A stretch of DNA of 60,326 nucleotides, filler included, from Hausera hauseri (Eukaryota), in the NCBI GenBank assembly GCA_046269625.1. It is 12 parts of 12 records of this genome, joined end to end, with 100 filler letters (N's around TTAATTAATTAA, not from the genome) between each part and the next. Parts side by side here need not be neighbours in the genome. Positions count along the whole stretch, not along the records: positions 34,572 to 41,540 come from JBJURY010047887.1; 11 more parts are not named here. One strand, given 5' to 3'. Under the pieces are notes generated by a model. That model made no database searches. It worked only from the letters and a program-made list of their open reading frames with translations, and had not been told where the DNA came from. Positions 21,071-57,399 of this stretch are shown one piece after another (position 1 is the stretch's first letter; each line of letters opens with the position of its first letter). The position numbers and the translations under genes are program-made.

Positions 21071-21141
21071 TACCAATACTTGTTTCAAAAAATAGTCAGT
21101 ACCTACCAATAAATGTTTTTCCAACGTTTTCACAATTCAGT

Positions 21142-23649: not shown

Positions 23650-25473
23650 CCACCGTCTCTTAGGTGGATCTGATCCAAATGCATCTTCTAAAGACCAACA
23701 AGATTGCTGATATCCCAACTATAAGTATACCGTTAAATTCACCTCTACCTCCTGCACCTACTGTAAATCTACCTTGCGTAGAATACTTCGTCGGCAAGCA
23801 ACACTCTAGTCGGGCGTGGCTGGATTTTTATGCGCTTGGTTGAATTAAAATAATATTGTCGATTCGTTCCTTAAAGCAAACAGTTTGCCTATACTCTTGC
23901 CTTTTAACATTAAGTCGCAACTTCCAAATTTATCGGAAATTTTCCAAAGTAGGGACTCATAAAACATTCTTTAACGCTATTTTAAAAATCACCGAACCAT
24001 CCATAGATAACATCATCCATAAATATTTTAACAACAACACAATAGGAACATTGAAACCCTCTGAATTTATACAAACCTCACCAACTCAATTGAGTACCCT
24101 TGGCGTTAATGAATTAAATAACGCCGATTTGCTACGTAGGTATTTTCTACAGTCTTTACCAAGAGACATACGCGCACTATTAACAATAGTAGAGGACAGA
24201 TCGTCACTACAAAAACTAGCACAACTGGCTGACAAAAGCCACGACGTCTTACATGCAAATACAGCCCCATTAATTGCCGCTACGTTTTATGCACCAACAA
24301 CTCAACAAGCTAGCGACATAGCTAATCTGAACTCATAGATAAATTCTTTACGTGTCGAAAACGCCAACATACATCAAGCGATTTCTGCACTCACGTCAAA
24401 AATCGAAGCTTTGACCATTCCTAGACGAAATCGTTTTGATGCGAACCATAGCCGCACCTCATCTCAAAATTCAAGGCATGCAAGGTCATCTACACGGTCA
24501 ATAGTGTGTTACTACCACACCAAATTTAAGGACAACTCCACTAAATGCTGTTTAGGTTGCAGATTGTATGCTCCCCATTTCACACGACCCGACATTGTTT
24601 GTATTTATCATAACAAATTTAATTCTAAAGCACATAATTGCGTTACAGGTTGCACTTTCGTTAACCGATCTAATTCACCACGACCTACTCTTTCTAACAA
24701 CATAAGTCCTGTGCCTCAAAAAAACTCATAAAGCCGCCAGATGTTTCGGCACATACTGGCACAGGCAAACGTCTTCAATCTAATAGCCGTACCTACGCTG
24801 TTTTCACATTAAAAGCCTCCTTAACATCCAAACCCAATTAACCAATCAACTTTCTCATCGACTCGGGGGTACTGTTTCGTTGTTACCACCATCTATCAAA
24901 ACACCATTCATATCACCATCTAACGCTAAATTATACACAGCTAACGGCCAAGTTTTACGCATTTTAGGCACGTCCAAAGTTTCATTCACTTTACCACCAT
25001 TCTGAGACATTTTCAATTGAAAATTCATCGTTGCCGACACACAATCTCCAATACTTGGGTCTGATTTCTTATCCTTCTACAACCTCCTTGTAGATTGCAG
25101 ACAATGTCGGATCATTAAAGCAGTTCAGCAAAGCCGACCCCTACAAATAACCAACCGATCATGAGGCCTATCTTAATTATAAAATCAATATTGAAGAAAC
25201 CATTAACCAATGTGAATAAAAACCTTACTGATAAAACCAGTATAAACAATCCTACTTTTCTGTTAAAGTCCTCTTTAGGCGGCCCGATTTCTACCATTTC
25301 TCAAACTAAGTTCAATCAAACATTTACTACGCCTAGCCAAGAAATGCAACAATATTTAGTCAAGTCTTGTTTTCATACAATAAAAAAGACCTAGCATTTC
25401 GACCGGTTAACACGATGTTTCATCATATCATTACAGAAAATCTTAGGCCCGTTAGGCAGAAACTCCGCCCACT
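23650..25473 (+). mobile_element. Ty3/Gypsy gag-protease-RT start (family A), degenerate
   Basis: FLQSLPRDIRALL...LQKLAQLADK, tandem CYYHTKF...C / CIYHNKF...C knuckles, FLIDSG protease motif, PILGSDFL, and HHIITE...VRQKLRPL. Confidence 0.9.
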
Positions 25474-25537
25474 AGTAGTTGTATAAGGAGGGTTATGGAC
25501 CGTAACGCTCCTTATACAACTACTAGTGGGCGGAGTT
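25461..25537. repeat. Near-perfect hairpin at the contig end with an AGTAGT...ACTACT core
   Basis: 25461-25490 is the exact reverse complement of 25508-25537, and the loop GGTTATGGACCGTAACG is itself quasi-palindromic. Confidence 0.9.
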
Positions 25538-25637: not shown

Positions 25638-28239
25638 ATCAATCATTAAGGAAGAAGAATACTACCCTTACGTTAAAACTCATGAGGAACAAGTCCTACC
25701 TAAGGCGGAACGTTCTATGCTAAAATGTACCGACAAAATGTTGGAGTTCAATAATCTTAGAAACATCTTAGAAACAATTTAACATCCATTGTACAATACA
25801 ATTGCATTTTTGCAATTTGACTTGACATTTTGAACATTTTTGCGATTTGACTTGACATTTTAAACTTAACAATGAAATTCGACTCTTCTGATATGGGTAT
25901 CATAACTTTTTATTATTTGGAAATTTTTTCCCTATATATGTATTGTAAACCATTTTGATATGGGTATCACAACTTTTTATTATCTGGAAATTATAAATAT
26001 TTATGTGAACCAAACACTCCAAACGCTTATGAACAAAAGTACAATTATTTTTAGAAATACAATAGCCAAATACAAATTGAAAATATTAACAATAGCAATT
26101 TAACAATAGTAATGAATCATTATTAGAAAGAATAGCTTCATAAACAACTCCGACGTCACAAAATCAAATATTACAAATGGAATTTAGAATACAATTATAG
26201 TTATAGATCGTGACAATTCAAAATTTTGAGAGCAATTACTGTCATCCACGAAGGAACAACTGGTATAAAAACTAGCTAGAAATTCACACAAGACACAACA
26301 GACTTCTCAGACATTTTGATCACAATATTATTGAACCAGTAGTGACCTTTTGGTAGGTCTTTTGGTTGATTACGATGAATATATTAGACATTTATTTCAG
26401 TTCATATAAGAACCAAGAGATCCATAATTCGAAATTATCCAGAATAATTTGAAATTCGTCGGAACAAAATTACTTCGATTTGACTTTATATATATTTGAT
26501 TATACAATTATGGCAGAAAATGATAGCAATAATTCGGCATCATACATTGAGAGCCTAGGTAAAAGTTCATGATATGTCGTTGTTCTTTTAATCATGATTA
26601 TTTGAATTGTAATATTTTTTAATAGAAATATAATTTTGAAAATGTAATTATATGTATTGTCTTGCCGGTATAGAAAGAATTAGGAAGACATAACCTTGAC
26701 GTATGAATATCGATATGAAGACAAGTGTTGGCCATAAAGAGTAATCCAAAATCTGGTGATCTAATAATAATTTATTAAAGTCAAAGATGTCAGAATTTTC
26801 AATCAAGGAAGACAACCCCGATGAGTCAATGATCTTCAATGAACGGCTGAGGGGATAAACTTATGTTGTCTACCTTTAGTGGACAGATAATGATATTGAT
26901 GAATGTTGATGTTGCTCAAACCCGTTTTAATGGAACACTGGTGATTGACCGAATAGGCGTTTAGGTATTAAACAAAAACCGGGTGAAGGCCTATAAAATA
27001 AGTGATATTGTAGAGGTTAGTATACTAACGAAGTCACAGTAATAATAAAGAACGATCGCGTGGATGTAGATGTAAAAATAAGCCCCGAAAAGATCCTTGT
27101 GACGAATAATATTTGAACTATAGGTAGAGGAACTAAAAGATAGTCATAAGAGTGCGAATCTGTAAGAATCTAACAATTATCGAGTAAAATATAACTACTG
27201 ATAGGTAACGAACGTTTAGCGTTGTTGAAAAATAAATAGACTATTGTAAAGAGGGCAATGATCCAAGCACCTCGTTTTTCGGACTATTATATATTAAAGT
27301 GAGCTGCATATTAAAATATAAAGTATGATTGTCTTTACATTGATTTAAACAATAAGGAAGCAATAGTTCGGGAATAAGATGGCCAGAAAACGACTTGTAA
27401 CTAGAATAAACTCGAACTGGTGTTAGTTCCTCTATACCGGTAATACGTGAGTTTTCACTTCTTACAGTCACAATATCATTGTGATTTATATTGTTGACCT
27501 TGTCGTAGTTTAGCCAAGGATGATAAAACAGATTAGGATGTTTGGCTTTAACCAGGAGTCTATTTCCAACGTTAATATTACGAAGAGAGAAGTTTATACC
27601 TATTGAACATAGATTCAATCAATGTCCTAAGAGACAACGATGGTCGGGATAATATATTAGTTCTAAATAAATGTTTTGGAAGAATTTTGGATAATATGTG
27701 TTTCACCATGATACAGGAGATTAAGAAATTCAAAAGTATGCAGGGTTGCCAACAAGATAAACAATGTTGTTCTAATATTCCAAAGGATACCACTACTTGA
27801 CGTCTTGAATTAAGTGTTATGATGCTCGACCATGACCAAATAATTTTGAGAGAACCGGATGATTTTAATTTGGTATTTGTAGCAAAGCATACATTGTCAG
27901 GAGAATGTAGTTCCGTTTTAATAGGGAATAAAGAACTCGATTCAAGGAAGGAGAATATACGACAATAGGACAACAGGAAATAGGTGCATGGCAGACTTGA
28001 GTAATAATTGAAGTGTATAGAATCTCGATAAAGGAATACCTAGAACGAAATTCTAGTATTACAGGTATATAATAAGAAAAGGGTAGAATTCAAAGGATAA
28101 CTAATGAGGAATGTGTTTAAGAATAAGTGCTAGGTGCAGGTTATTCGTAACCGAACCACCATTGAACTCGCCTTCAGAGAGAGAGAGAAGATTTTTATAT
28201 ATATGCGTACGATTTAAGGTCACTATACCAACCCCTGTA

Positions 28240-29127
28240 CATTAACACTGTAGTAGATGACTCTACTGCCCTCGAAAAGTTCGTCTTATTGGCTGAAAAA
28301 AGCTTTAACATTCTGCAGTCCAATAACTCGCAGCCTGTAGCCGCAGCAACTACTCACACTGCCAGACAACACTTTATTTGCACAACAACTAAACATGATG
28401 CAGAAACAATTTGATACCCCACAACAAGCAATTTCTGCAATCACATCCCAACTCAGCGACTTATCTGTGCCCCGAGGAAGCGAAAATCGTATTTCTCGCA
28501 ATCGAAGTTTTTCCAGGCACTCTTCTCGTTCTAAATCTAGAGATGGTAGGATGACGTGCTTTTATCACAACAAATTCCGCAAAGATGAAAGGAAATGTGT
28601 TTTAGGCTGTCGATTCTACGATGCACGATATGCCGTAGACAATCGAATCTGCATCTATCACGCAAAGTACCAGTCCAAGGCTAGGTCATGCGTGCCAGGA
28701 TGTAAATATTATAAAAGGAATTCTAGTTCTCCATTTTCTTCGCCTCTGCGTACTCACCATTCCTCCTCTTCCTACCAACAAGTCTCAAAAAACCAGTAAT
28801 GCCACCATATTCCACGGCACATTCTGGTACAGGCAATATTGCTGACACTACTGGCCGTTTCAACACGGCCTCTGCAGTCTTTCTGTTGGAAGCTAATCGG
28901 TTACTTAAAGCACATCACACATAGATTTCCTTATTGATTCAGGAGCTGCATTTTCATTTCTTCCATTGTCTTTCGCTCCTACATCCAACACAGTTTTCTC
29001 TACTTTACTCTTCACTGCCTGTGGTCAACCTTTGAACATTGTATGTACCACAAAGCTGTCTTTCTCATTCTACAACCTACCAGGAAAATTTTCCTGGAAT
29101 TTTCACAGCCAACATCAGATCGCCCAT
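28240..29127 (+). mobile_element. Ty3/Gypsy gag-protease fragment (family A)
   Basis: CFYHNKF...CVLGC / CIYHAKY...CVPGC knuckles and FLIDSGA protease motif; ends at ANIRSPI. Confidence 0.88.
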
Positions 29128-29860
29128 AGTAGTAGGAAGGGAGCGCATGAGCACAGTACCAATCCCCTTCCCCCTTGCGGAGGAAAAAATTGATGTGGTT
29201 CGCGGATGAGCCATGGGGTAGAGAAAATGATTCACACATACACGATTAATAGGGCGTAGATAGGAGACACACGGTTATTAAAGTGATACACACAAGCACG
29301 CGTACTGCATGGTTTGTAGGTGGACTTAACATTTTGAATTTCGCGCCAAACATTTTTGTTGTAATTTTGGTTTTGGTGTAAGGTGATTGGTTGATTTGTT
29401 TCAATTTTGTCAGTGAACAAAGTATTTTCTGATCTAATCATGGTTTCACTATTCCCACCCCCTACTTGTTTAAATTTTACAAAGTTGATATAAATACCCC
29501 TGTGTCACCTGAGAAAAAATGTCTCAAAATTTGTCAACATTTAAATGAACACTATGACAGAAGATAAAAAAGTCTTTACAAATATTTATTAATATAACAC
29601 ATACAAACAATGAAATATTTACAGATTCAATACAATAATGTCCATAGGCGACACTTTTATTTTTCGATATCCAGTGTCGTTTGTCATCAAAAGGGTCCAA
29701 AGCTTTCTTTTTGGTACTGATCATCATCAGTTGATGGTTCTTTGTCCCAATCCGTTCTTGATCAACAATTGTCCCACATCCACTTTCATATGCTTGCAAG
29801 TAGTTATCAAAGTGCAAATCCGTTTGTTTCAGATTGATACCCTTGCATTTGAGCACTGGT
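29128..29860 (-). mobile_element. Polinton/Maverick terminus and pPolB C-terminus
   Basis: ORF 29856-29524 has KCKGI...LHFDNY...IGTKNHQL...KKALDPFDDKRHW...SVAYGHY (pPolB end). AGTAGTAGG begins exactly where Gypsy homology stops. Confidence 0.8.
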
Positions 29861-29960: not shown

Positions 29961-31432
29961 GCGGGTGGTGGGATGTTGTCTACAGATGTTTACACTGGAA
30001 TATCTTTGATAATTTTTCGAAGAATTCACTAATAAAATATGGTGTGCGGTCAGTCAATAACTGCTTCGGTGTGCCTAGTACGGCCACAACATAATAAAAG
30101 AATGTTTCGGCTACCGTATGACTAGTCATATTTTTCAAAGGTATTAGAACAACATATCTTGAATAGTAACCAACAAGTGACAAAATGTATTTATATCCTG
30201 ATTCCGATGTTGGAAACGGTCAAGAAATATCCATCGAACAAACTTCCATAGGTTGTCGTGCTTCGAGAAGACTTCCTAAAATGGCTTTGCACGGAATCCT
30301 CTATCCTTTATGGTAGCACACATTTTGAAAAAACGTACCCATCCCTCAATGTTTGTTCATTTGAGGCCAATAACATTTTGTGGCAATGCGTTTCAATGTC
30401 TTGTTTAACGACGGATGACCCGCTAAATGTGAGTCATGTTCTTGCAGCATAACTGCTTTGATTGTTGAATTGGGTACAATAATTAGCTTTCTTTCACCAA
30501 CTTTAAGTTTTAGTATTCCATTTTCAATGTCTAAATGTTCCTTACGTCCGTAAAATTTCTGAATATGACTTGATACTTGATCAACCGTTTGTCCATTTGT
30601 TAAGTTTGACTTGGACAATAAATGGATCTTGATTTTGTAAAGCTTCGATATTTCGAACCTGAATTTGCTTTTGTTTCTGTAACATGTCATTAATAATTTT
30701 CTCATTTAATTGTTTCTTCTGTCTTGTGGTTTATGAACGGCAGCAACTATATTTTCATAAGGTAATCTAGAAATTGCATCTGCGTCTGCATTGTCCTTTC
30801 CTGGTCGATATCGATATTCGATGTCATAATTCAAAAGCTCTAGCTTCCATCTTCGGAGTCGGCTTGATACATGTCTATTGTCTGAGCGCAAAGAAAGTAG
30901 TGCTTTATGATCCGTGAATATTATGACTTTGACCATAGACATAATATTCATAATGTCGTAGTCCGTCACGTATTGATAATAATTCTAATTCCGTGGTAGA
31001 ATATTTCTTTTCGGCGTTATTTAGACTTCGTCCTCCATATGCAATTACATGCTCAGTTGTCTCTTCTGGACACTGTTGAGCCAAAATGTAACTAATAGCT
31101 TTAATGCTGGCGTTGGTTTTCAGAATAAACAAGAGTGAAAAATCCGGATATCGTAATGTGGGTGCTGATGCTAGACGTCTTTTTATTTCATCAAATGCTT
31201 CTTGATTTTCTTCCGTCCATTCCCACTTCTGATCCTTTCGAAACAATTTATACTGGGGTTGGTTAATTTCTACAAAATTCTCAATAAACGTAGGATAAAA
31301 TCCTCCCACTCCTAACCAGGCTCTCATCTCATGTACACTGGTTGATGGAGGATATTCCAAGATTATGGATATTAAATCTGAACTGGTATATATGCCTTGG
31401 TTTGAAACAACAAATCCAAGATATTTGACTTC
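29961..31432 (-). mobile_element. Ty3/Gypsy pol pseudogene (RT thumb, RNase H, integrase), family B-related
   Basis: EVKYLGFVVS, LRYPDFSLLFILKTNAS, IAYGGRSLNNAEKKYSTTELE, TDHKAL, EHDSHLAGHP...YWPQM and PKQLLTDR. Confidence 0.92.
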
Positions 31433-31890
31433 TGTTGGTATTGTATATGGTGCCAACAATATTCTAGTAAGTGGTTCGACGTAACGGATATCATTATTAT
31501 ATTTGATAGGTATTTCTGAATCACAGTGTATCTTTGATTAAGGATAATTCCAATCTTTTACACTTGTATGTGAAAAGTACTTCTAGGACTCTGCTCTGGA
31601 TTCCTTCGCCGAACGAGAGTTATCATTGTCATTTCTGGATTTGACGCACAGATGGCTAATCGGTTTCTCAACGTTTCAAAGTTTGCCTAGCAGAAATTCT
31701 GAATTGTTTCGGAATACACTTCTATTGTTTTGTGGGTCAAATAAAATAAGACATTTCTATTTGCGATGTAATCGGCAATGTTCACCAATTGAGCCCTGTC
31801 GGTTAATGAATTGTCTGTTTGTACAATTTCTTTTTCCGATTTTAAGAGTTTGTATTGGGCAAAAGCCCTGTATAGGCCGCACAATACAAG
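31433..31890 (-). pseudogene. Chuvirus-like glycoprotein, central fragment
   Basis: VNIADYIANRNVLFY...SNPEM...GEGIQSRVLEVLFTYKCKRLEL...HCDSEIPIKYNNDIRYVEPLTRILL aligns by eye with the glycoprotein at 34727-35100. Confidence 0.8.
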
Positions 31891-32779
31891 TTCTAAAATC
31901 CAGTCGTAAAACGACTGGTGAAAACTTGGGGAAACAACAACTCCAGATTAGGTTTGTTGTAATAAATTTAGGTTGATGTAGGTGATCTAGACGTCGTGTG
32001 TAGGTGGAGTTGGACTCCACACCATATAAGAAGTTGGCAAAGATGTCCTCGACGCTGTGGTATTTGGTTGCGGTTGTTTTGTCTGTTTCAAGACAGCATT
32101 TCAATAAATCTTCATTTCGGTTGTCTTTGTCATCATCACGGCTGCTGCTGCCGCTGCTTGTTGGTTTCGTTCTTGAATCGCGTGAGTCATCAGCAGAGAA
32201 GCTGTATGAATATGAAAAGAATATTAAAGAAATTTATCAGGAAATTATCGGCGTTCATGTCTGCATCCATTCGGTTGAATTCGCATTTGATATCTGATAG
32301 TGACTATGGGAATTATCGTTGACAATAAAACAGGTTTGTCCACCATGTGAAAATGATGAAGTGTTAATGACGGTATGACCGACGGAAATCGTGTGCTGAT
32401 GAGCTGTCGTCAGTTGTTATGGGACCTTGTGGTGTAGTCGAGTCGATGGACAAGTTCCATATTAAATTGATGAATGACGCGTTGGTCGTAATTCCTGCAA
32501 TCTTCATCAGTGTCGGTTGATCGGCGAATAAATCGGACAATTATGGCAGATCGCCCATTCGATTTGTGGTTGGTAATGATATCGCAGTCGCAGCTGCGAT
32601 TGCTGATGACGACGACAGCAATGCGAATTTGTTGATGTTTGTCGCTTTCCCTTTTTTTAAAAGTTAAACTGTTCTTTTGGACTGTAGATTTAAATAACCG
32701 GGTTTAAATCCACAGATTTTTGCTAATGATAATGTTCTTAGGCGAATTCATGATTTTTTAGTATTTGAATTTGTTTTGA

Positions 32780-33520
32780 TATTTGATTTTGTAAAGAAAA
32801 GCTTTACAACGATATAAAATAATTTTCATAGTTTGTACTAAATACTTGTTCACATTTTGTAATCAAGTCTTGTTGTATAAACTTAACACCTTGGATATTT
32901 TTAGATATTATAATTTTGGTTTTTACTTCATCAATTACTTCACTATTTGTATTTTCAACATTTGTTTCATAATGTCGTGCATGACGTTTTCCCGTCGTTG
33001 CGTTAGATTCGCCTTTCCGGATTTGTACTAATGCAATCATAACTTTTAGGGGTTGTGCAGTATCGTAGACGTTCTTGTGTGACAATATCCTATTCTAATT
33101 TACAGAAGGGAACATCCATTATCGTATTCGTGTTTGTTTCAAAGATGAAGGTATTTTCTTTGATTTCAACATCATACTGATCGTGTACAACCGATTTTGA
33201 AATAACTCCTTTACCTGTATCGAAATTGCCTCCTTTGCCATTTCCTTTTCATCTTTATGCAACAATTCATTTTTCTTGTTGAGTTACTTGATCTCTGCAG
33301 TTAATAAGATGTCACCTCACTTCAATTGTTGGGTTTCACCTGCGTCTCGACAATATGTGAGATTGACCGACACGTATCTAGGCATTGTTGTTGGTTTGAT
33401 AGCGGAAACATGATGTAGATGACCGCAGTAGGTAATAGTACGGGATACTCGTAGTGAACACTAATCCTTTTATATGATGTGTGGATTTGTCATAATAAAT
33501 ATACGAATTTTGTGTCGTAA
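32780..33520 (-). pseudogene. Chuvirus-like glycoprotein, N-terminal ectodomain fragment
   Basis: SRTITYCGHLHHVSAI (cf. chuviral RTIYYCGMHSHVSAV), GGNFDTGKGVISKSVVHDQYDVEI...FCKLE, and GVKFIQQDLITKCEQVFSTNYE (cf. GLKFIKKEMMTRCDKVMFATNYE near 34614). Confidence 0.8.
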
Positions 33521-34319
33521 TTCCTAATTTCTTCGGAAGTGCGTCCGGGCGAGATTGTAAATTCATTAGAGTAATAACTTCCTTCATAAACTTTGTCACA
33601 ATTGTATGTTAGTATGGTTCCTGATTTCTTAAAATTTGAGAATAATGCCAATATGAATAGGATGAGTTGTAAGAAGAATCCATTAGTTTTAGTTCCGACA
33701 CTTCAGCATTTCTTCCTGAATGTTTCATCATTTTATCCATAACAATGGGAACAGCTTCTTGTGAGGAATTCTCTGTAATTTCGAAAATAGCCTTTTCTAA
33801 TGTTGTTTGTTCTGCTTCTGGATGATTTTCGTTTTCATTTCGTAAGAATAAGACATTCCATTTGCCGTATTGTGATATGATCGATTTGCTAGCCTGGATT
33901 ATTTTTCCAGTTGTAATTTTAAGTCAGTTTCGTTGTTTCGGATATAAGTAGAATTATTACTTTCTCAAGGTTTCTGCGCGATGGCGCCTCTAAAATGAGT
34001 TGGGTAATGTCTTCAAAAGTAAAATTTTCCCATTCCAAATTTTTAGTGGTTTTTCACAAATTTGAATTGCTCTTTAACTTGTTTCTTCCATTTTGGAGAA
34101 TGGAGGATTATCGGATCTTTGCTTGTATCGACATAACATAGCTCGCTAGCTAATTTTGCATTTTTGCATTCCTTGTACAGTTTTGGCGTTTCGAATTCAA
34201 TTAGTTGATCCGCAGTTTTTAGCATTTGTTATTGTTTTATTTCGTTTACATCGCTCATTTAGGTAAAGTTTTCTTTACGATTGGTTATACCACTTCTTGG
34301 CCATCAGTGTCAGTGTTTG

Positions 34320-34471
34320 GCTTGTTCAGTGTTTGGTAGTCTAACCTATAAGTCTTGATTATCGTATTTGATAAATGGTTTGTTTAATGCCGTACAGTTT
34401 CGAATTCCTGTTGGTATTGTATGTGGTGCCAAAAATATTCTGGTTATTGGCTGAACATAACGAATTTCATC
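34320..34471 (-). pseudogene. Additional chuvirus-like glycoprotein fragment
   Basis: DEIRYVQPITRIFLAPHTIPTGIRNCTALNKPFI...VRLPN; a paralog of 31433-31500 that continues further into the glycoprotein. Confidence 0.7.
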
Positions 34472-34571
34472 NNNNNNNNNNNNNNNNNNNNNNNNNNNNN
34501 NNNNNNNNNNNNNNNTTAATTAATTAANNNNNNNNNNNNNNNNNNNNNNNNNNNNNNNNNNNNNNNNNNNN
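34472..34571. other. Artificial contig-joining linker
   Basis: N44-TTAATTAATTAA-N44. Confidence 0.99.
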
Positions 34572-35744
34572 ACGGAACACCCGACACCGACTATATTTAT
34601 TTCCGACCCGCACGGACTAAAATTTATTAAGAAAGAGATGATGACACGCTGTGATAAAGTAATGTTCGCCACAAACTACGAAGCGTTCTTTGTGCCGAAA
34701 CAGAAATAAACGCGAGAACTTACAAATTGAAAACGCAAGACGTTCGGATTGAGGACTACCTGAAAAATAGGGACGATTATTTCTACTGTAAAGGACAAGT
34801 CGGAATAACAGAATTATATCATAAAATGATAATGAATGATAATAAGAACTATAATGGCTCTTATATACGCAAATCCAGAATTAGCTTCTCCAATAATTTC
34901 CATGAGAGAAGGAATTTTCGGTCGAGTTACGGGCGAAGTATTACTAACCTATGAATGTGAAAAAAGAGAACTACCTATCAGCGTAGAAGAAAAACGTTGT
35001 ATCCAAGAACTTCCTGTTATTTACCAGTATACTCCAAGATTAGCTACACCATTGACGAGAGTGTTGTTGGATAGCGCGACACAACTGATCATTCTTAAAG
35101 ATTGTAAATCAGGCTTAGGAGAACCAATGTTTCGACGTAGCGAAACAGACTGGGTTAGTTTACCTAATGGAGATATCACTGCTGCTCCTAACAAGCTAAC
35201 AGGGACGAATCTTGCGAAGGGTATTACAGACGATAAATTTCAAGACATCTCGTCAAAAGGTATATACAGACCAAAAGAAATTGAAGCCTTCAGACAATTC
35301 CCCGCCTTTCCACGACAACGAACACATGAGCTAAATCGAGCTATGGCGTCTGTAGTAGACGATACACGATATCAAGCTAAATGGGAATCATTACTTGGCG
35401 TAAACCACTATCAAAGAGTGACAACAGAAATACTCTATAAAATTTGGGGAAGATTTTTGATTTTTGGACAAGCCGCATCAGGATTTTTAGCGATATACTT
35501 TCTGATACAAATGATTAAGTCGGTTATCCAAGCCGTGATAAACGGATATGAAATATTTACACTAACCGGATTTTTATGTAAAATTCTGACTGCAATCATA
35601 ACGCCTTTTGGAAAATTCTTAAAAGCATATGAGGAAAGTAGATGGAAATCGGACGTAGAACGTCATGTCGGTTACTATAATCGTAAACGAAGAGGGAGAC
35701 CGTTATTCCTACAAAAGCGGAAGTATACAAAACCTATTATATGA
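34572..35744 (+). CDS. Chuvirus (Jingchuvirales)-like envelope glycoprotein, C-terminal half
   Basis: GRVTGEVLLTYEC...CIQELPV...ATPLTRVL, SSKGIY...IEAFRQFPAFPRQR and IWGRFLIFGQAASGFLAIYFLIQMIKSVIQAVINGYEI mirror chuviral G (VAGEVIHIVKC...CYxQLPV...TPRTHIL, TSGIY...LRDHIMFPAE, WxKFLxFGxxSAG...IxHGYAL). Confidence 0.85.
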
Positions 35745-38700
35745 AGAAATAATTCAGATGATGACGAGCCTAAGGGAGGAGAAGCGCTTGTAGGAATAAA
35801 TAGACATAAGATGTACTCCGTCATGAAAGCGCCATTGCCCATGTTACCTCCTACCGCTCCATTCTACGAAGATTGCGACAAACGATCCATGAGCTCATAT
35901 CAAACGGAAATCTATAAAAGAACAATTAATGTCGAAGATCCTTATGAAGGAACGAAACGTTACGGAATTCTACGGAAAATGTGCTACCGACAATCCGCAG
36001 ATGATCCCAAAGTGTTTTATTCACCGAGAGAATCTAAAAATATCGAAACTAGATCTACGGTTTGGGACAAACCCAGATTTAAAACCTTCCAACATACTGA
36101 ACTACATACCAACAATCGAGAGCCGCTAATCAGTACTCACGAAATGGAAGAACTGCATGTAAAAAACAATGAATTATATTCCGACGAAGAATTAAGACAG
36201 TTATCGGGAAACATAGTATCCGCCCCAGAAGTACGAATAAACGGACACAAAATATCAGTAACTAAATGTATGAAAATAGCATCGAATTGTTTCGGAACAG
36301 TGATCGAAGGAAGACCGTTCGCCAAAATCACTATTGAGGATTGGGAAGTTTATGCGTCAAGTTTATACATCAAAAATAATTCAATACCTCAAACGCTAAG
36401 AGGACAGTTATATCCGCCGTCTACGAAAGATCCGGGTAGTATAGGAGCTTTTGGCCAAATGTCAAAACCAATGTTTAAATGGAACCCAGAAGTTCATTTA
36501 GTTTGGCAAACATTTCGACACAAATTTGCGATCATGGAACAATTAACTGACGACGTTGTTCTAGGATGCAATTTATTGAAAAGGTTACCAAATATAGCAG
36601 TCGACCTACAAACAGGAAAATTAATAGAAATCAGGCTCAATAAAGGTGTGAAAAACTCTAATAATAGAAAATTTGGGGAAGTGTGGATACCAGTAGACGA
36701 GAATATTCCACCAAGAACGGAAATAATAATTTATGCACAAATTCAGCAAGATGACGATCATCCAGTATACTTCGAACCAAAGGAAACGTTAAATCCAAAT
36801 ATAACGCTCAGTAATGTACTTACGAGAGTACATTCTGGTCGTGTGCCGATCAGAATAGCGAATAATGCACCAACTCCTATCAAATTCCATGCTTATACTA
36901 CTCTAGGAGATACGTATAGAGTATCGTCAATAACCATTGAAGAAAAGCCTTATAAGTATGCCGAATTTCCGCCTCATGTTGAAACTAAGTTCTGCCCGGA
37001 ATTCTACTATCGATTTTATGAATTATTATGCCACTATAAATCAATTATTGCTAAGGATAAAAATGATAGCGGTAGAGCAAAAGCGTTAAAACTGACTGTT
37101 CCGCTCAACAAAAAGCATGATTCAAATGAAGAAATAGATTTGGAGGATCAGAAGATTCCGAAACAATACCCTCCACCACATTCGCTAAGACTTGAGTAAA
37201 CAAAGGAAGTCGAACGAATGCTTAAGGCCGATATAATTATGCTCAGTTACAGATCCTGGTACTCGCCTATCCTTATGGATAAAAAGAAAGGCACCATGAA
37301 GCACCGATTTTGTATCGATTATAGAGCTCTAAATAATCTTATGATGAAAGATTCTTTTTTAATGCCATTAGTGAAAGAGGCCTTAGACAGACTCTCAGGA
37401 GCAAAATAATTTACCACTCTGGAACTACAATCCGAATATTGGCAAGTGGAAATAGAGGACGAAGACCGCTATAAAACAGCGTTTAAAACACACGATGGCG
37501 TTTATGAATTTAACGTCATGCCGTTCGGTATTACTATCGGATTAGCCATATTTACAAGAATGATGAACAAAATGTTAATGGGACTGGATCATGCCTTTGC
37601 GTATTTAGATGACGTGATAATAGCATCGAGAACAGAAGAAGAACACTTAAAGGATATTGAACACGCACACTGATGAGATTGGAACAAGCCGGATTGAAGT
37701 TAAATCCGAAGAAATGCAAATGGGCTCAAAATGCAATATCCTACCTGGGTCATATAGTTAGAGAAGAAGGATCGAAACCAGATAAATCGTTATTGAACAA
37801 AATATCAGATTGCATGGAACCACAAAATCAGAATGAGTTAAGACACTGGTTAGGTCTCTGCGGATATTATGCAACATATGTGCCGGATAATTCAAAGATT
37901 AATTCACCTGTATATCGTCTGCTTAAAAAAGGGATTAAATGGAAATGGACAGACGTGGAACAGAAAGCTTTTGATGAGAGGAAGAAGATATTAACAAGCG
38001 AAACCGTTTTGCGATATCCAGATTTTAGCTTACCCTTTATAATCAAGACAGACGCCAGTAAAGAAGGCATTGGTTATGAATTAGCACAGAAAAGAATATG
38101 AAGAATTAGAACACCCGATTGCTTATGGAGGACGTTCCTTAAAAAGGCCGAGAAAAATTATTCTGTTACCGAATTAAAAACTCTAGCCGTAAAAGAAGCA
38201 CTACGCCATTTCAACGTTTACGTATACGGACAGAAAATTATAATTGTTACCAATCACAATGCTGTTACGACCTTAAGGGCCGAGCAAATAATCCGACATG
38301 CAGGCTTAATAAATGGATCGAAGAAATCTCCAGATATAACATTGAATTTCAGTATATGCCAGAGAACAAACATGTAGACGCAGACGCCCTATCGAGATTA
38401 AAGATTAAAACAAGCGCAATCATTACAATGAAGAAAAGTCAACTTGAGGAAGTAATAGACCGCCAAAGAGCGCTAACAATGGATAAGGCCATTAAAATTT
38501 CAACTGAACAAAGAAAGGATAAGGTCGTCCAGCAGATTATAGAATTCGCCAAGAAGGATGTCGTACCAAGAGGACGAGAGTTAAAGAAGCATTTAAACAG
38601 ACTCGGACATAAATATTGCGTCTTGAATAACAAGAGTAAAGAAGATATTTTATATTACGAGCGAAAAGGAAGGAAATTGATAGATATCCCAAAGAGTTTA

Positions 38701-39780
38701 CGAACCGAAGTGCTGATGTCAGAACATGATTCATACTTAGCCGAACACATGTCCTGGAAGACATTAGAAAGAATAATAAACAAGTACTTTTGGCATAGTA
38801 TCTATATTGATGTGAAAAATTGGGTAAATGCCTGTGAAGTGTGTGCAACTAAGCAGAAAAAGACGAAAAAATACATGGCCGAGTTAAAACGAATTGATGT
38901 ATCCGATAGGCCCATTTAGGCCATGTCGATGGATATCGTAGGATCTCTTCCTACGACTCATAGGAACAATAAGTATATGTTAACGTGCGTCGATCGCCTA
39001 ACTCATTTTGTCAAAGTGGTAGCATTGGTTGATCAGAAGGCGGAAACTTTAGCAGAAGCAGTAGTAAGAAGAATCATTTGTCGATACGGACCACCTGACC
39101 AAATATTAACGGATAGAGGTAGAAACCTTACCAGTGAACTTTTCGAGAAGATTACCAAGATATTTGAAATCGAACGATTAACCACTACCGCATATCATCC
39201 TGAGTGTAACGGGATGGTAGAAGGCATGAATGCTACCATCATACGTATATTATCAACAGTTGTGGCAAAGGGCCAAAAGGATTGGGATGGATTTTTAGAA
39301 GGAACTCAATTTGCGATTAATACTACACCACATTTAGTAACAGGATTTACACCATTTTTCATGATGTATAGTTGTGAAGCTGTGTTACCTGCAGACTTAG
39401 TAATGACGCCATACACAGTCAGTCTCGAAGATTTGGAGCAGAACTTTGCAGAAGTATTGCAGACACGATTACAAAAATGTTGGGAAATTGCCAAGGAGCT
39501 ATTTTAAAAATATCAAGAACAGTTTAAAAAGCAATATGATAAGAAAGCGAAACCGCACGATCTAGAACAAGGAAACTGGGTTTATGTACATTATTCGGTA
39601 GCCAAAAAAGGCACCTCACTAAAATTGACTTGTACGGGTAGAAAACCGTATGAAGTCACCAGAGTCACGCCAACCACAGTGTATATTAGCAAGAATGGAA
39701 AAGAAGAAGTTGTGTCAATACAGAGAGTTGTCAAGACAGAAATGCGACCCAGCAAACGTTATAATTTACGCCAACGTTGG
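35745..39780 (+). pseudogene. Linker plus Pol (protease, RT, RNase H, integrase) of family B copy 1
   Basis: VVLGCNLL (protease end), RFCIDYRALN, KTAF...MPFG, AYLDDVII, IKTDAS, HVDADALSR, H..H...CEVC, MDIVGSLP, ILTDRG and HPECNGMVE. Confidence 0.95.
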
Positions 39781-41211
39781 GTAAAAACATCCTCAATAGT
39801 TACTAGACCAATATCATATGTTCAGATAGTTTTAGCATTATCACTAATTGCCTCCTACATCCCAAGAATACAAGCGCAATGGTGGCATGATGAATCCACA
39901 TTAGGAGATATATACGGAATTCGGAAGAGTGGATCGAAATCGGAAGCAGATAAAACGGAGAAGAAACCAACAGCCGAACAAATTCAAAGACAAGAAGATA
40001 CTAAATTGTTACAATCGATGATAATTCACTATTATTCGCCAAACGCAGTATGATCGGATTTAAGGTTTGGAGGCCACACCTTGATTTTGGAAAGTTTCAA
40101 ATTGTCTTATTTGACCTAACCACAAAAGCAATGAAAAATTGTAATTTCGAACCTGGAGAGAATATCCAGTGCTGCGACAGATTTTGGACGCACGTATAAC
40201 CTCACCTATCGTCTCTACTTGCCAGACTCATCCGAAGTTTATCTTGAAACAAAGCCACATTCACAATTAATTATCCCTGCATGGAACAGACATCATGGAG
40301 TAAAACTTAATGAAATATTACGATCTACTGACCCAGATATAAGAATATTAAACGAAAATATCCAGATAATCTCTGTGAATAAGGACAAACAATGCATTCA
40401 AGTAGACGCTAGAACAGGATTAACTTTTAGTCAGGAAATTAGTATTACGTTTGAAGCAACAGATGGACTGACCCCAAAAATAGAATATTGTTCTATTCGA
40501 GCAGGCGTACAAAGTCCATGAAGTAAAATACCCGTAAACCAAGAATTCAAGATAAGATTTGACTTATATGAAGTACGGCCTAATAAATCAAGTGTACAAC
40601 TTCGAACTTACTATCCAGAAAATAAAATTTGGAAAATTTTAGTAGAGACAACCACCAGAAGACCGGCAACTCAAGTTAATACCGTTACGACAACCGTTAC
40701 GTCGGCCAGTGTGCCGAAAAGAGAATTAGGAAGCATTCCTATTAGATATTCGGTATATCGGTCTAAGATTGTGTTCTTTGTGGAAGGAAAACAAAATTAC
40801 AATATACATAAATTGTCGGACAACGTATAATAATCAAGCTGTGACATTATTTAAAAATACTTATCAGAGTGCAATTTATTAAAACCACAAACCAAGTATG
40901 TAGTACAAGTATACGCAGAGAATAAGCAAAATCAGACTGTTACATTGCAAACTTTAGATGAGATTCGCGCAGAATCCCATGCATACGAGGATATAGATGG
41001 ACAGATCACAACTCCGGTCACCACACAAGCCCCAATGGGATTAACTACGCTACCAATCGTATCCATCTCCATATTGTCAACATTTGTTCTCATATTAATC
41101 GCGATTTTTCGGCTAGTTACCAAAAACTGCTATTCTAAGCGTTCTGAAAACTCAGAGTGGGAATTAAGGAAACTGGAAACCTCTGTTGATCCGTATGATA
41201 AAATAACCTGA
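39781..41211 (+). pseudogene. Type-I membrane protein fused in frame after integrase (signal peptide, FN3-like domain, Thr-rich stalk, TM, short tail)
   Basis: After RYNLR: YVQIVLALSLIASYIPRIQA (signal-like), TTTRRPATQVNTVTTTVTS, LKPQTKYVVQVYAEN (FN3-like), IVSISILSTFVLILIAIFRLV (TM) and tail YDKI. ORFs 38923, 39625, 40219 and 40945 share one frame. Confidence 0.7.
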
Positions 41212-41540
41212 CAACTACAGAGCGGGTTATTCTATCATCTAATAAAGAATTGATTTAATTTTAAAACTATCCTTTGTCGTAAGATTAATCCTTACTGTTT
41301 ATTTTTCAGACTGATGAGTAAAGAAAGAAATACGGAAGCAAACACCGGACGACCTAGGATCGACGTATCACAATCTACCCAAGAGTCAGAACAATGTAGT
41401 ATCGATAAATCGCCGAAACGCCGATTTAGTATCGACGAATTCTTGCAGAATTATGCTACCATCTTCCTCCCAAATTCTAAATCGATATATAGAGAAATAC
41501 ATAACGTACTACATGAGAAAACCTTCGTGAAGTATGATCG

Positions 41541-41640
41541 NNNNNNNNNNNNNNNNNNNNNNNNNNNNNNNNNNNNNNNNNNNNTTAATTAATTAANNNN
41601 NNNNNNNNNNNNNNNNNNNNNNNNNNNNNNNNNNNNNNNN
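41541..41640. other. Artificial contig-joining linker
   Basis: N44-TTAATTAATTAA-N44. Confidence 0.99.
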
Positions 41641-46173: not shown

Positions 46174-49100
46174 TACAAGAACTTCCAGTAATATATCAGG
46201 ACGTACTGAGGTTAGTAACACCAATTACCAGAGTGTTGTTGACAAATGCCACTTAACCGACAATTTTTAGATACTGTAAAACCAGCTTAGGAGAGCCAAT
46301 GTTCAGACGTAGCGAAACCGACTGGGTAAGTCTACCTAACGGTGGTATTATCGCACCACCTACCAAACTGACAGGAACAAACTTAATAAAATGAATAACC
46401 GATGACAAATTTTAGGATACAGCTGCAAAAGATATTTACCGACCAAAAGAAGTAGAGGCGTTTATACAATTTCGCGCTTCTCCCCGCCAACGTACTCATG
46501 AATTAAACAGAGCGATGCATACAATATTAGAGGACTCGCGCTATCAGGCGAAATGGGAGTCACTACTTGGAGTTGGCTATTACAAGAAGGTAACTACAGA
46601 AATATTATACAAAATATGGGGAAGATTTCTGATATTCGGACAAGCCGCGTCAGTATTTCTAGCAATATACTTCTTAATTTAACTAGTAAAAGCTATAATT
46701 CAAGCAATCATAAATGGATACGAGATATTTACCTTAACAGGATTTTCGTGCAAAATTTTAACGGCTATTATTACACCTTTCGGTAAATTCTTAAAGGCTT
46801 GTGAAGAAAGTAAATGGAAAACAGATGTAGAGCGACTTGTGGGCTACCACAATCGAAAACGTAAAACACACGTATTTGATTATAGACAGAAATTCATAGT
46901 CAGTAAGACACAAAAAAATAATTCGGATGATGACGAGCATAAGAGAGGAGACATCATCACCAGGCCGAGTAAACACAAAAAGTACTCTGTTATGAAATTA
47001 CCATTACCAGTAATGCCACCAATGGCACCTATAGATGAAGATTGCGAGAAACAATCTATGAGCTCGTGTCAGACAGACGTCTATCGCAAGCCATTTAATA
47101 TAGAGGATCCCTACGAAGGAACAAAACGCTATGTGATATTTAGCAAGATCCACGAAACAGAGAGGACGTCTGCCCCACACCATCGATCGGCAATAGACAA
47201 CCACGGTATAATTTACTCACATAGAATACCTAAGCCAAACGAAACGCAATCGATATTTACTCGAAGCTGCAAAGCATGAAATCTCCGAAAAACACATGTT
47301 CAGCCTCCAGTCAGAAACCCAAGAGTAGAAAACGCGAATGGAACGAATAACGAACTATATCCAATTGGAGAGTTAAGACAGTTTGTCGATCAGCCAGTTG
47401 GAACCACTGAAGTTACCATCAACGGCTATAAAGTGTCTACGATACGACAACCCAAGGTAGAGCCAAGCTATTACGGTACAGTAATCGAATGAAGGCACTT
47501 CGCAAAAATTCAATTGGGGGATTGGGAGGTTTATGCACTAATAGATACATGATCTGAAATATCGCTGATAAAATATGATTCAATACCACAATTCTTACGG
47601 AAACAATTATATTCACCTCCCACGACAGACCCAGGAAGCATTGGAGCTTTCGGACAGTCGTCGAAAAGCAAATTCCGTTGGAAACCAGAAATTCACATAA
47701 TGGGACAATCTTTTCGTCATGAATTCTCGGTAATGGAGCAACTAACGGATGACGTAGTGTTACTGTGTGACTTATTGAGACAACTGCCCAATATAGCAAT
47801 CGATTTCAATGCAATCAAGTTGATAGAACTTGGCCCAATAAACGGAGTTAAAACCACTAAAGATAGGAAATTTGGAGAAGTGTAGATTCCAGTGGATGAA
47901 ACCCTATCACCCAAAACAGAAATCCTAATATATGCTCAGATACGTCAGGATGACGATCAGCCAATATATTTTGAACCAAAGGAATCGCTCGATTCAAACC
48001 TCGTACTCAGCAATGTTTTGACAAGAGTATCAACGGGTCGTGTACCAATCAGGATAGTCAATAACGCACCAATTCCGATCAATCTGTACGCTAATACCAC
48101 TTTGGAACACATGTGGAGAGTATCATCAATCACTATTGAGTAGAAACCATATAACGGTGCCGAATTTCCACCCCACGTCGAGACTAAGTTTTCACCAGAA
48201 TCATATTGTCAATTTTACGAATTACTTTGTCATTATAGTTCAATTATTGCGAGAGATAAAGAAGACATTGGCCGAGCCAAAACCTTAAGGCTTACGATTC
48301 CGCTTAAGAAAAATCCCGGATGTAACGACGAAATAGACTTAGAAGATCAAAAGATTCCAAAATAGTACCCTCCTCCACACTCGTTAAGACCAGAGATAAC
48401 CAAAGAGGTTGAACGAATGTTAAAGGCAGACATAATTAGACCATGCTACAAATCTTGGTATTCACCGATACTCATGGTCAAGAAAATAGGTACTATTAAG
48501 CACCGATTTTGTATCGACTATTGAGCACTAAATACACTTATTATGAAGGACTCTTTTCCTTTATCATCAGTAAAGGAAGCTCTGGACAGACTTTGGGAAG
48601 CTAAATGGTTTACCACTCTTGGCTTGCAATCAGGATATTGGCAAGTGGAGATAGAAGAAGAAGATTGTTACAAAACGGCATTTAAGAGACACGACGGCAT
48701 ATATGAATTTAATGTTATGCCTTTCGGAATCACCAATGGACCAGCTATTATCACCCGCATGATGAATAAGATGCTAATGGGACTGGCACATGCATTCGCC
48801 TATTAAGATGACGTCATGATTGCCTCGAAAACGAAAGACGAACATTTAAAAGACATTGAAGGTACACTCATGAGGCTGGAACATGCTGGACTAAAACTGA
48901 ATCCCAAGAAGTGCAAATTGGCTTAAAATGCGGTATCGTACCTTGGACATATAGTTGGAGAAGGAAAATCGAAGCCAGACAAGTCATTACTAAATAAGAT
49001 ATCGGACTGCATGGAACCTCAGAACCAAAAGAAATTAAGACATTGGTTAGGTTTGTGTGGGTATTATGCTACTTACATACCGGACAACGCGAAGATACAC

Positions 49101-51200
49101 GCACCTTTGTACCGCTTATTAAAAAAGGAAATCAAATGGAAGTGGACCGATATCGAACCAAAGGTTTTCGATGAAATAAAGTACATTTTAACTAATGAAC
49201 CGGTTTTAAGATATCCTGACTTCAACCTGCCGTTCATAATCAAAACGGATGCCAGCATGGAAGGCATCGGATATGAACTGGCTCAGAATCGAGAAGACGA
49301 GGAGTTAGAACACCCGATCGCATATGAAAGGCGTTCTCTAAAGAAGGCTGAAAAGAACTATTCCGTAACAAAGCTGGAAACATTGGCAGTGAAAGAAGCA
49401 CTGCGACACTTTAACGTGTATGTCTATGGACAAAAGACTGTAATCGTTACCGATCATAAGGCAGTCACGATCTTAAAAGGTAAAGCGAATAATCCAACGT
49501 GTAGACTAAATATATGGATAGAAAAATTTTCACGTTACAATATTGAATTTCAATACAAACCCGGAAGTAAACATGTCGATGCCGACGCATTATCGAGACT
49601 TAAAACCAAAACAAGCGCAGTTACTGTAATGAGTAAAGCACACCTCGAAGATTTAGTAGAAAGACAACGGAATTCGTGCTGGATAAAGCATTAAAGATTG
49701 CTGTCGAACAGAGAAAAGACAGGGTTATACAACAGATTATCGAGTTCGTTGATACCAACGTAACACCCAAGGGTCATATACGGAAACACCTACGACGATA
49801 TGGTCACAAATACTGCGTCGCTGGAGATTGGAACCATGAAAAAGTGTTATACTACGAACGAAAAGGACGAAAATTGGTAGTCATACCAAAAGGAGTGCGC
49901 ACAGAAGTGCTTTTAGCCGAACATGATTCATACTTAGCTAGACACATGTCGTGGAAAAAGACATTAGAAAGGATATTAAATAAATATTATCGGCCGAGTA
50001 TTTACATTGATGTGAGAAATAAGCGCAACCAAACAAAGGAAAGTGAAAAACATATCGACGTGCCCGATAGACCAATGCAAGCAATGTCTATGGATATTGT
50101 AGGGCCATTACCTACAACTCATAAGAAAAAAAATATAGTTTGACCTGTGTAGATCGACTGACTCATTTCATCGAGCTTGTAGAGTTACTAGACCAAAAAG
50201 CCGAAACCTTGGCAGAAGCCGTAGTTCGCAAAATCATTTGCAGATACAAGCCACCCGAACAAATCTCGACAGACAGAGGAAGAAACTTCACGAGCGAATT
50301 GTTCGACAAAATTACCAAAATTTTTGAGATTGTACGGCTAACTACTACGGCTTATCATCCCCAATGTAGTGGAATGGTTGAGCCAATGAACGCAACAGTT
50401 ATACGAATCTTATCGACAGTAGTCGCACAAGACCAGAAAGATTGGGATGAGTTCTTAGAAGGTACACAGTTTGCTATTAATACTACGCCACATCCTGCAA
50501 CAGTACTTACTCCGTTTTTTATGATGCATGGCAGAGAAGCTGTATTACCTACAGATATAGGACTGATTCCATACACAACAAGAACGGAAGATTTGGAACA
50601 AAATTTTGTCGAAGTATTACAATCAAGATTGCACAAGTGTGGGGAGATAGCCAAGGAAGTATCTAAAGAATACCAGGAACAATTCAAGAAGCAATACCAT
50701 AAGAAAGCTAAACCTCACGATTTAGAACCCGCAAATTGGGTTTATGTACACTATCCAGTAGCAAAGAAAGGAATATCTCTTAATTTTACCAGGACAGGCA
50801 CAGGACCTTATGAAGTTACCAAGATTACGCCGACCACAGTCTATATAAATAAAAATGGCAAGGAAGAGGTCATATCAATTCAGAGATTAGTTAAAACGGA
50901 AATAAGACCGGATAAATGCTATAATTTGCGTTCGAATAAAGTTAATAAGGAAAGGAAAACATCGTCAATCGTAACCAAACCGTTACCGTATGTCCAAATA
51001 ATTCTTGCCCTATCGTTAATCGCTTCATGTGTACCCAAGGTGACATCAATAACTAGAGCCGAAAAACTACGATACGCGATGAAACGCAGGGATATCCAGA
51101 ACATGCAATCACTTAGAGTACATGATATGGATTGGAGCAAACCATGTGCATGGTTTGAAGCAAGCGAACCTATTCAGAGCCACGTAAAATTTCAAATAAT
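46174..51200 (+). mobile_element. Envelope-bearing Ty3/Gypsy retroelement (family B), copy 2
   Basis: Glycoprotein C-terminus (QELPVIYQ...IWGRFLIFGQAAS, 46174-46830) continues in frame via NNSDDDE into the protease ALIDT*SEISLI (about 47535-47570), then RT, RH, IN, RSNK and the signal-like YVQIILALSLIASCVPKVTS. Confidence 0.92.
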
Positions 51201-55985: not shown

Positions 55986-55989
55986 TTCA

Positions 55990-57269: not shown

Positions 57270-57373
57270 GGCAGAAAATCGGGGCCTGCCTATGTGCCCG
57301 ACGCGCCGGCAGCAAAAATCCGGCCGTGCCCACCCGAATGGGCCAGAGGGCGCCGGCCGCTGTGGGCACCACA
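57270..57373 (-). repeat. GC-rich LTR fragment
   Basis: The minus strand begins TGTGGTGCC at 57373, the same start as the LTR at 14338; it is a sharp GC-rich island. Confidence 0.5.
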
Positions 57374-57399
57374 AGTATAGTCTACCAAATTCAAAATTT

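Follow-up and report, generated by a model that had tools for sequence, protein, structure and literature searches.

Burro/GYPSM1 are giant Ty3/Gypsy elements of planarians in which env lies in frame between gag and pol and a dUTPase-like domain is present. The text of Arkhipova and Yushenova (2019; PMC6431247) describes their Env as matching mononegavirus fusion glycoproteins, reports BCL2-like, ubiquitin-like and ankyrin domains, with the BCL2-like and other accessory domains located between gag and env, and gives internal regions of up to 25 kb and, for some hosts, decayed copies interrupted by stops and frameshifts. In the text of Chary and Hayashi (eLife RP108449, PMC13524379), GAG-ENV-POL "ancient errantiviruses" with an HSV/gB-type env are described from Platyhelminthes, Nematoda and Bryozoa, elements with this layout are found not to be monophyletic, and a 2022 study is cited for a Ty3/Gypsy element with env 5' of pol. 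Anakin and related elements that carry a chuvirus G have a BEL/Pao pol, with env 3' of pol (Dezordi et al., 2020, PMC7642597; PMC13524379). The available text of PMC11410931 only names Burro, and Troyka, given as lacking env in that of PMC12440569, is irrelevant here.

The window analyzed here is a 60,326-nucleotide stretch of 12 contigs of the Hausera hauseri assembly GCA_046269625.1, joined by spacers, and positions count along the whole window. One contig (34572..41540, plus strand), bounded at both ends by spacers (joins 34472-34571 and 41541-41640) and without visible LTR or gag, carries a decayed Ty3/Gypsy copy with a class III env in frame with pol, very probably a Burro-type GAG-ENV-POL element translated as one polyprotein. 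In this copy, copy 1, glycoprotein, linker, protease, dUTPase-like fold and reverse transcriptase (RT) follow one another in the same frame; an ORF scan found four ORFs sharing it (34836-35744, 35745-37199, 37200-37409 and 37410-37673), broken only by single stops at 35742, 37197 and 37407. Frameshifts occur in the first ~260 bases of the glycoprotein and again from 37660 onward, and RNase H and integrase come after RT, beyond private frameshifts. RT and RNase H (37170..38405, plus strand; PF00078, PF17917, PF17919) contain stops and frameshifts, and they are followed by an integrase with H2C2 zinc finger, core and C-terminal domain (38686..39777, plus strand; PF17921, PF00665), to the end of which, at 39777, relatives align.

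A second copy on a separate contig (copy 2; 46176..51040, plus strand) extends from the C-terminal half of env to a post-integrase hydrophobic segment and is 67% identical in amino acids to copy 1 over 865 codons. The best PDB match of copy 2 was Ty3 RT (E 3e-74); the next (E 3e-50) we take to be a caulimovirus-type enzymatic polyprotein, and retroviral RTs matched at E 6e-28 or weaker. On sequence grounds, the pol order PR-RT-RH-IN and an RT-RH nearest to Ty3-type enzymes place the element in Ty3/Gypsy. Both copies are inactive. No LTR-like direct repeat was found in the copy 1 contig, which is cut at both ends.

The envelope region of copy 1 (34572..35651, plus strand) represents the C-terminal ~60% of a glycoprotein, with two frameshifts before 34836. 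The contig start at 34572 falls inside this gene, adjoining the N spacer, so the contig holds no 5' sequence, and the env alignments of relatives to copy 1 begin at 34575-34584. Its Pfam match is to PF24664 (Monjiviricetes_fusion; E 1.4e-32), over profile positions 344-601 of 653, and from this family a class III fold of the HSV gB/chuvirus G type is predicted for it; sequence searches of the PDB returned no env relative. Two hydrophobic segments at its end (35454..35609, plus strand; 35454-35510 and 35553-35609, Kyte-Doolittle peaks 1.66 and 1.76) are predicted to form a membrane anchor plus a membrane-associated helix. With a single env sequence as query nothing was found among viral or metagenome contigs, and an env alignment as query found two loci in metagenome contigs, a single match of 26 residues (L003) among viral contigs, and nothing in prokaryote genomes. 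The PF24664 match, the ORFs in one frame, and the Pfam matches to RT, RNase H and integrase bear out the original prediction of a Ty3/Gypsy element with a chuvirus-like class III env 5' of pol and fused to it in frame.

A quick tree of env proteins was built from 60 rows, among them 40 stand-alone glycoproteins and three pol-then-env fusions, leaving out hits that spanned fewer than 200 residues of the query, most fragments, two members of clusters, and the stand-alone glycoproteins beyond the first 40. The window env nests in an 11-row clade (SH-aLRT 97) made up of env-before-protease or gag-before-env proteins; the 40 stand-alone glycoproteins and the three fusions fall outside this clade. 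One other hit, P0054, has a BEL/Pao pol with env 3'. The tree position and the in-frame pol rule out an endogenous chuvirus fragment, that is, a stand-alone G of the ~650-aa viral glycoprotein group.

The linker from the env tail to the protease (35652..36309, plus strand; ~220 codons) has an acidic patch near 35745-35770 and the copy-specific stop at 35742-35744. It had no Pfam match up to E 5, in agreement with the claim that neither capsid nor CCHC motif lies between glycoprotein and protease, and, unlike several relatives, it contains no protease repeat. A PTAP-like late motif in the copy 1 linker has no counterpart in copy 2 or the 13 relatives scanned and was rejected as a conserved feature. 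Between the copies, linker pN is 0.28-0.33 against pS of 0.72-0.78, and over all 865 codons, which align in one frame, pN is 0.18 and pS 0.79. Stops are shared at none of 14 aligned positions, and the env-to-RT frame of copy 2 (46176-48857) has 12 of its own. At the position of the 35742 stop, copy 2 reads a sense codon, and a base different from that of the stop accounts for 2718 of 2812 depth (about 97%; 72 contigs) in run X1 and 31.5 of 34.6 depth (5 contigs) in run X2; no indel reached 30% or more in 35660-35840 in either run. The copy 2 codon and the X1 depth confirm that this stop is a product of decay. The same data bear on whether the arrangement is a chance juxtaposition or assembly chimera that set an endogenous chuvirus G fragment beside a Gypsy pol, which we consider extremely improbable: the contigs are short, repeat-derived and decayed, and none in X1 or X2 covers the whole copy 1 stretch, but individual contigs of both runs cross the junction, this junction and the reading frame persist in two copies whose synonymous sites are saturated, with the linker under constraint, the same fusion occurs in many intact relatives, and the env tree separates the window env from stand-alone G proteins.

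The protease of copy 1 is a retropepsin remnant (36310..36620, plus strand) recognized by alignment with copy 2 and with the protease regions of relatives; it has no Pfam match of its own, and six codons are missing at the catalytic motif in the alignment with copy 2. Between it and RT, a predicted model and Foldseek point to a dUTPase-like domain (36666..36932, plus strand) that was not detected by Pfam alone. The model has pLDDT of ~78-86 over residues 141-220, and all the Foldseek matches listed are dUTPases (best E 2.4e-4). As modeled, this domain has the same place between protease and RT as in Burro/GYPSM1-type elements.

Relatives, whose env is only about 30-35% identical to that of the window, indicate what the missing 5' part might contain. 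Among the best 150 matches there were 15 proteins of at least 790 aa, and in 10 of them a protease follows env in the same chain; the chain runs on through RT, RNase H and integrase in P0002, P0004, P0051, P0135, P0151, P0155, L001 and L002, the last being a single frame of 3,703 codons. In P0002, P0008, P0009, P0011, P0051 and L002 the chain also has CCHC knuckles, placed upstream of env. Because uninterrupted frames in relatives encode a single Gag-Env-PR-RT-RH-IN protein, gag is likely to lie upstream of env, off the contig, rather than to be absent. The original prediction had allowed for gag either further upstream or absent; the first is what six relatives with CCHC knuckles have, and the second loses its footing with a contig cut inside env. 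It is accordingly very improbable that the element lacks gag altogether, as an Env-Pol unit with membrane-tethered Pol that does without a capsid or takes one from elsewhere. None of the three env-bearing contigs of the window shows gag, but the contigs of copies 1 and 2 start within env, the other has undergone rearrangement, and the six relatives have their CCHC Gag upstream in the same frame. The third contig carries a remnant of a second family (29962..33700, minus strand; tblastn of relatives, Pfam RT_RNaseH) with env pieces 5' of RT-RH-IN, in which a deletion joins env to the RT C-terminus.

A Bcl-2-like region precedes env in P0001 and P0007 (E 9.6e-4 in the latter, weak), and BCL2-like, ubiquitin-like and ankyrin domains were weakly seen in P0007, L002 and P0151. 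The window, where this region lies off copies 1 and 2, gave no match to a profile of the Bcl-2-like/accessory region made from four relatives. A Bcl-2-like region suggested by eye upstream of env on contig 29961-34471 gained no support from the profile and was rejected. L001 and L002, both partial, have no LTR-like direct repeat.

The first 45 residues encoded on the copy 1 contig, the end of domain II, resemble by eye six Schmidtea (C1a) rows in the supplement of PMC13524379. The match covers about 30 of these last ~45 domain II residues, with 12 of 27 identical to Smed_errantivirus_1, again by eye. This resemblance bears on an alternative in which the window holds an independent GAG-ENV-POL lineage, from a host outside flatworms, nematodes and bryozoans, with the same layout through separate origin or horizontal spread. 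We judge it unlikely, given that the relatives with which env groups resemble the six Schmidtea rows, by eye, in domain I-II, and that the dUTPase-like insert matches Burro. In its favor are the long branches of the window copies to all relatives (1.28 for env and 0.88 for RT, in trees with unnamed relatives only, where the RT grouping with P0002 is supported at only 80) and the lack of monophyly of GAG-ENV-POL elements (PMC13524379). In addition, the assembly may be mixed, given that the contig at 41641-46073 (GC 47%) seems to come from another organism.

Downstream of integrase, the Burro-type reading may gain a further component. The region 39796..41211 (plus strand), which the span of the original prediction (34572..41211) includes and leaves undescribed, appears by hydropathy to consist of a signal-like hydrophobic segment (39796-39852), a decayed ectodomain, a Thr-rich stalk, a predicted anchor (41050-41106) and a short tail; a second type I membrane protein is predicted after integrase, with the frame running on. 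An FN3-like remnant near 40730-40930 is weak (Pfam fn3, E 0.018, below cut-off), and a profile of the relatives' repeats placed its top two of 1067 window ORFs in this region (E 0.022 and 0.12). In L002 the predicted model of the corresponding region has tandem fibronectin type III domains. The window was not singled out by a first profile, built on the whole post-integrase regions of four relatives, and hhalign gave no match between the L002 alignment and either of two post-integrase stretches of the window (probability 0.15 and 0.11). For 40522-40827, no score from Atlas exceeded 0.82. A Pox_G7 match at 40855-41208 (E 2.8e-4, below cut-off) was taken as a composition match.

In an active element, Gag would be made first, in the cytosol, after which an internal signal would route the env ectodomain into the ER lumen. 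The env anchor would bring the chain back to the cytosol, and Pol would therefore be synthesized as a continuation of the env tail, a membrane tethering that follows from the predicted topology and would last until the element's retropepsin releases Pol. After integrase, another internal signal would direct export of the fibronectin-type ectodomain with its own anchor, and cleavage by signal peptidase and retropepsin would then yield capsid, fusogen, enzymes and second surface protein, and as product an enveloped particle that could fuse with other cells. Tentatively, and with some doubt, we propose that the Burro-type GAG-ENV-POL polyprotein contains two surface proteins, a class III fusogen before Pol and a tandem-FN3 type I membrane protein after integrase, the latter serving attachment or host-receptor mimicry, with Pol as a cytosolic loop between the two anchors. 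Such a pair would divide the work as in enveloped viruses that use one protein for binding and another for fusion. According to the text of PMC13524379, gB-type fusogens normally require partner glycoproteins and how gB-carrying errantiviruses enter cells is unknown; if the proposal is true, the FN3 membrane protein is a concrete candidate partner for a gB-type fusogen, and makes the question testable.

The original prediction took env genes of invertebrate LTR elements to lie 3' of pol, a premise contradicted by the texts of PMC6431247 and PMC13524379; hence its claim of a distinct, undescribed enveloped lineage fails, as published families already have the order seen here. The window element is a new, inactive member of a kind of layout already published in flatworm elements. 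Being dead and of a class already in print, it contributes little beyond a further high-copy family in which selection has maintained env in frame with pol. The post-integrase, fibronectin-like second surface protein is possibly its one new detail; "fibronectin" does not occur in the text of PMC6431247, nor do "fibronectin", "polyprotein" or "fused" in the main text of PMC13524379, which discusses neither the in-frame fusion nor a post-integrase protein. The likeness to Burro/GYPSM1 is by description rather than direct sequence comparison, and is drawn from a 7 kb contig, with element size, LTRs and 5' accessory domains outside its view. With Anakin-type elements the window element shares the Pfam glycoprotein family, but its pol is Ty3-like rather than BEL/Pao and its env is 5', which sets it outside that group. 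With the GAG-ENV-POL errantiviruses described in the text of PMC13524379, it shares gene order, env class and a Ty3/Gypsy pol, and with Burro/GYPSM1 a mononegavirus-like env in frame and 5' of the protease, a dUTPase-like domain between protease and RT, and decayed copies.

Copy 1 of the Gypsy element, on the plus strand of contig 34572-41540, holds one frame, that of position 34836, continuously across glycoprotein, linker, protease and reverse transcriptase (RT), interrupted only by stops at 35742, 37197 and 37407 ahead of a frameshift near 37664. The glycoprotein (env) matched PF24664, Monjiviricetes_fusion, in Pfam (E 1.4e-32) and closes with two hydrophobic segments on the plus strand (35454-35510 and 35553-35609); Pfam also recognized RT, RNase H and the two integrase domains downstream. 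The frame and these matches confirm the predicted glycoprotein ending in hydrophobic helices, followed in the same frame by a linker, the protease and RT of pol, with RNase H and integrase further on. A Pfam search of the env-to-protease linker up to E 5 returned no match. Modeling of the stretch between protease and RT gave pLDDT values of about 78-86 over residues 141-220 (whole-model mean 45), and all matches listed by Foldseek were dUTPases (best E 2.4e-4). Among solved structures, Ty3 was nearest to the RT-RNase H of copy 2 (contig 46174-51200), at E 3e-74. Frameshifts in roughly the opening 260 bases of env and in the pol region, together with six codons missing at the protease catalytic motif of copy 1, mark the window copies as dead.

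The in-frame fusion of env to pol is real. An alignment of the two copies covers 865 codons (env to RT) and keeps a single frame in each, with 67% amino-acid identity, pN of 0.18 and pS of 0.79, and none of 14 aligned stop positions is common to both. By its rates (pN 0.28-0.33, pS 0.72-0.78) the linker is under constraint as well. A total of 21,509 contigs from sequencing run X1 mapped to the stretch, and the element therefore belongs to a large repeat family. At position 35742 a different base made up 2718 of the 2812 depth in X1 (72 contigs) and, in a second run, X2, 31.5 of 34.6 (5 contigs), and contigs of both runs had no indels at 30% or more within 35660-35840. The stop is private to copy 1, and the original prediction that this TGA reflects decay of that copy holds. 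A linker stretch of about 45 bases at 35744-35790, which encodes an acidic patch, had contig depth ~100-fold above its flanks in both runs and showed loose ends at either edge; this stretch may represent a nucleotide motif kept across diverged subfamilies, or one common to another repeat.

Both copies begin within glycoprotein coding sequence, so that sequence 5' of env is not visible, and relatives were used to consider what precedes it. The search with env yielded 328 proteins with E of 0.001 or lower, and the best 150 of these included 15 of at least 790 aa: ten with protease behind env in the same chain, two with sequence 5' of env that end after env, two pol-then-env fusions, and one with Ig domains ahead of env. 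RT, RNase H and integrase continue the chain in proteins P0002, P0004, P0051, P0135, P0151 and P0155 and in metagenome loci L001 and L002; P0002, P0008, P0009, P0011, P0051 and L002 carry CCHC knuckles upstream of env within one chain, and L002 holds a single 3,703-codon frame from Gag to past integrase. A quick env tree of 60 rows nested both window copies in a clade of 11 rows (SH-aLRT 97) made up of env-before-protease and gag-before-env proteins; this clade sits in a group of 17 rows (94) that is separate from 40 stand-alone glycoproteins and three pol-then-env fusions. A 14-row RT tree placed the two copies as a long branch next to P0002 with weak support (80). Because relatives have gag-env-pol chains and the env tree groups the copies with them, gag probably lies upstream, off the contig; of the two options originally proposed, gag further upstream is thus likely, and its absence is disfavored.

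P0002 (HBK71150.1), an Env-Pol polyprotein, is recorded at NCBI under a Flavobacteriaceae MAG as a hypothetical protein; it probably comes from animal DNA that was binned with a bacterial genome. In P0004, P0008, P0151, L001 and L002 the polyprotein contains between two and seven dispersed protease-like motifs; the window element shows one. Accessory ORFs downstream of the polyprotein (L001:10617-12107, minus strand; L002:12085-13473) resemble each other by eye, and that of L002 has a weak match to RNase_T, a DEDD-type exonuclease (E 0.0011).

The frame goes on past integrase into a second, predicted membrane protein, at 39796-41211 (plus strand) in the window, L002:9904-11205, L001:9095-10279, and the C-termini of P0002, P0004, P0135, P0151 and P0155. 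Hydropathy placed a hydrophobic segment at 39796-39852, which copy 2 also has, and another, strong segment at 41050-41106 that follows a Thr-rich stretch; at least two such segments lie beyond integrase in all seven relatives whose chain extends that far. Modeling of the corresponding L002 segment from a 4-row alignment gave two beta-sandwich domains (mean pLDDT 64) whose best matches were fibronectin type III (FN3; Foldseek E 1.6e-6; Tie2 FN3 domain, VIA Z 9.4, rmsd 2.5 over 85 residues), and the L002 ectodomain is predicted to comprise two FN3 domains. The window itself gave a Pfam fn3 match below the cut-off (E 0.018), and the relatives' repeat profile, run against 1067 window ORFs, ranked adjacent ORFs 40855-41208 (E 0.022) and 40730-40879 (E 0.12) first and second, covering complementary parts of the profile; profile-profile comparisons of the window's post-integrase region with the relatives were negative. 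The fn3 and repeat-profile matches hint faintly at an FN3 remnant in copy 1. The L001 env-to-pol linker holds one more FN3-like repeat, flanked by two hydrophobic segments.

Beyond the observed gene order, frame continuity, constraint and domain identities, hydropathy and general knowledge of polyprotein viruses suggest how such a chain might be made. A single long product would be translated with Gag remaining cytosolic; an internal signal would export the env ectodomain, and a single env anchor would bring the chain back, leaving Pol to be synthesized on the tail of env. For Pol to be cytosolic, just one of the two hydrophobic segments of env could cross the membrane. A second internal signal, after integrase, would export the FN3 ectodomain, and signal peptidase and retropepsin would free the parts. 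We tentatively entertain, as somewhat doubtful, a polyprotein with two glycoproteins, one an FN3 attachment candidate.

The window's 12 contigs (4.2-7.0 kb each, separated by N spacers) represent several loci, not one, and are mostly transposon remnants. On the minus strand at 29961-34471 a second family has env pieces 5' of RT-RNase H-integrase, its env split by ~1 kb of other sequence; a deletion fuses env to the RT C-terminus, and the contig end carries a duplicate of a 63-base piece of env. Mutually related pieces of a smaller, separate Gypsy family (10967-16390, 21071-25537, 25638-29860, 55716-60326) showed no env. Remnants at 16491-20970 and 5111-10866 are those of a protein-primed DNA polymerase B, presumably Polinton-like, and of a hAT transposase. 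A stop-free frame of ~1,355 codons at 946-5010, open at the contig end, has an unassigned, long N-terminal part and a BRO1-like domain near its end (Pfam, E 5.9e-25). The interval 21334-22181 joins a TCP-1/cpn60 fragment, in a single frame, to an XRN N-terminal fragment immediately behind it, a chimeric or captured host-gene piece. The contig at 41641-46073 (GC 47%, vs 34-39% elsewhere) carries a DDE_Tnp_4 transposase remnant and DIRS-like pieces that we take to be fish-like; the assembly may be a mixture of two organisms.

The literature located contains no description of an FN3-type membrane protein fused after integrase, and "fibronectin" is absent from the main text, as accessible, of the planarian Burro/GYPSM1 paper (PMC6431247) and the eLife paper on GAG-ENV-POL errantiviruses (PMC13524379); PMC6431247 Fig. 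2A, Grohme 2018, Sacco 2022, Repbase entries or the eLife repository could hold one. Relative to these partly accessible sources, the feature may be new. Planarian Burro/GYPSM1 elements carry a mononegavirus-like env in frame between gag and pol, and a dUTPase-like domain between protease and RT (PMC6431247); elements in GAG-ENV-POL order with gB-type env are described from Platyhelminthes, Nematoda and Bryozoa (PMC13524379). The env-pol order had been taken to mark an undescribed lineage, a claim overturned by the families with the same order in the accessible parts of PMC6431247 and PMC13524379, and copy 1 is an inactive element of an already published kind. If the host lies outside Platyhelminthes, Nematoda and Bryozoa, the range of such elements would be extended. 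The opening residues of the copy 1 contig are similar to the final part of domain II in the six Schmidtea rows of PMC13524379, with 12 of 27 positions, counted by eye, identical to Smed_errantivirus_1.
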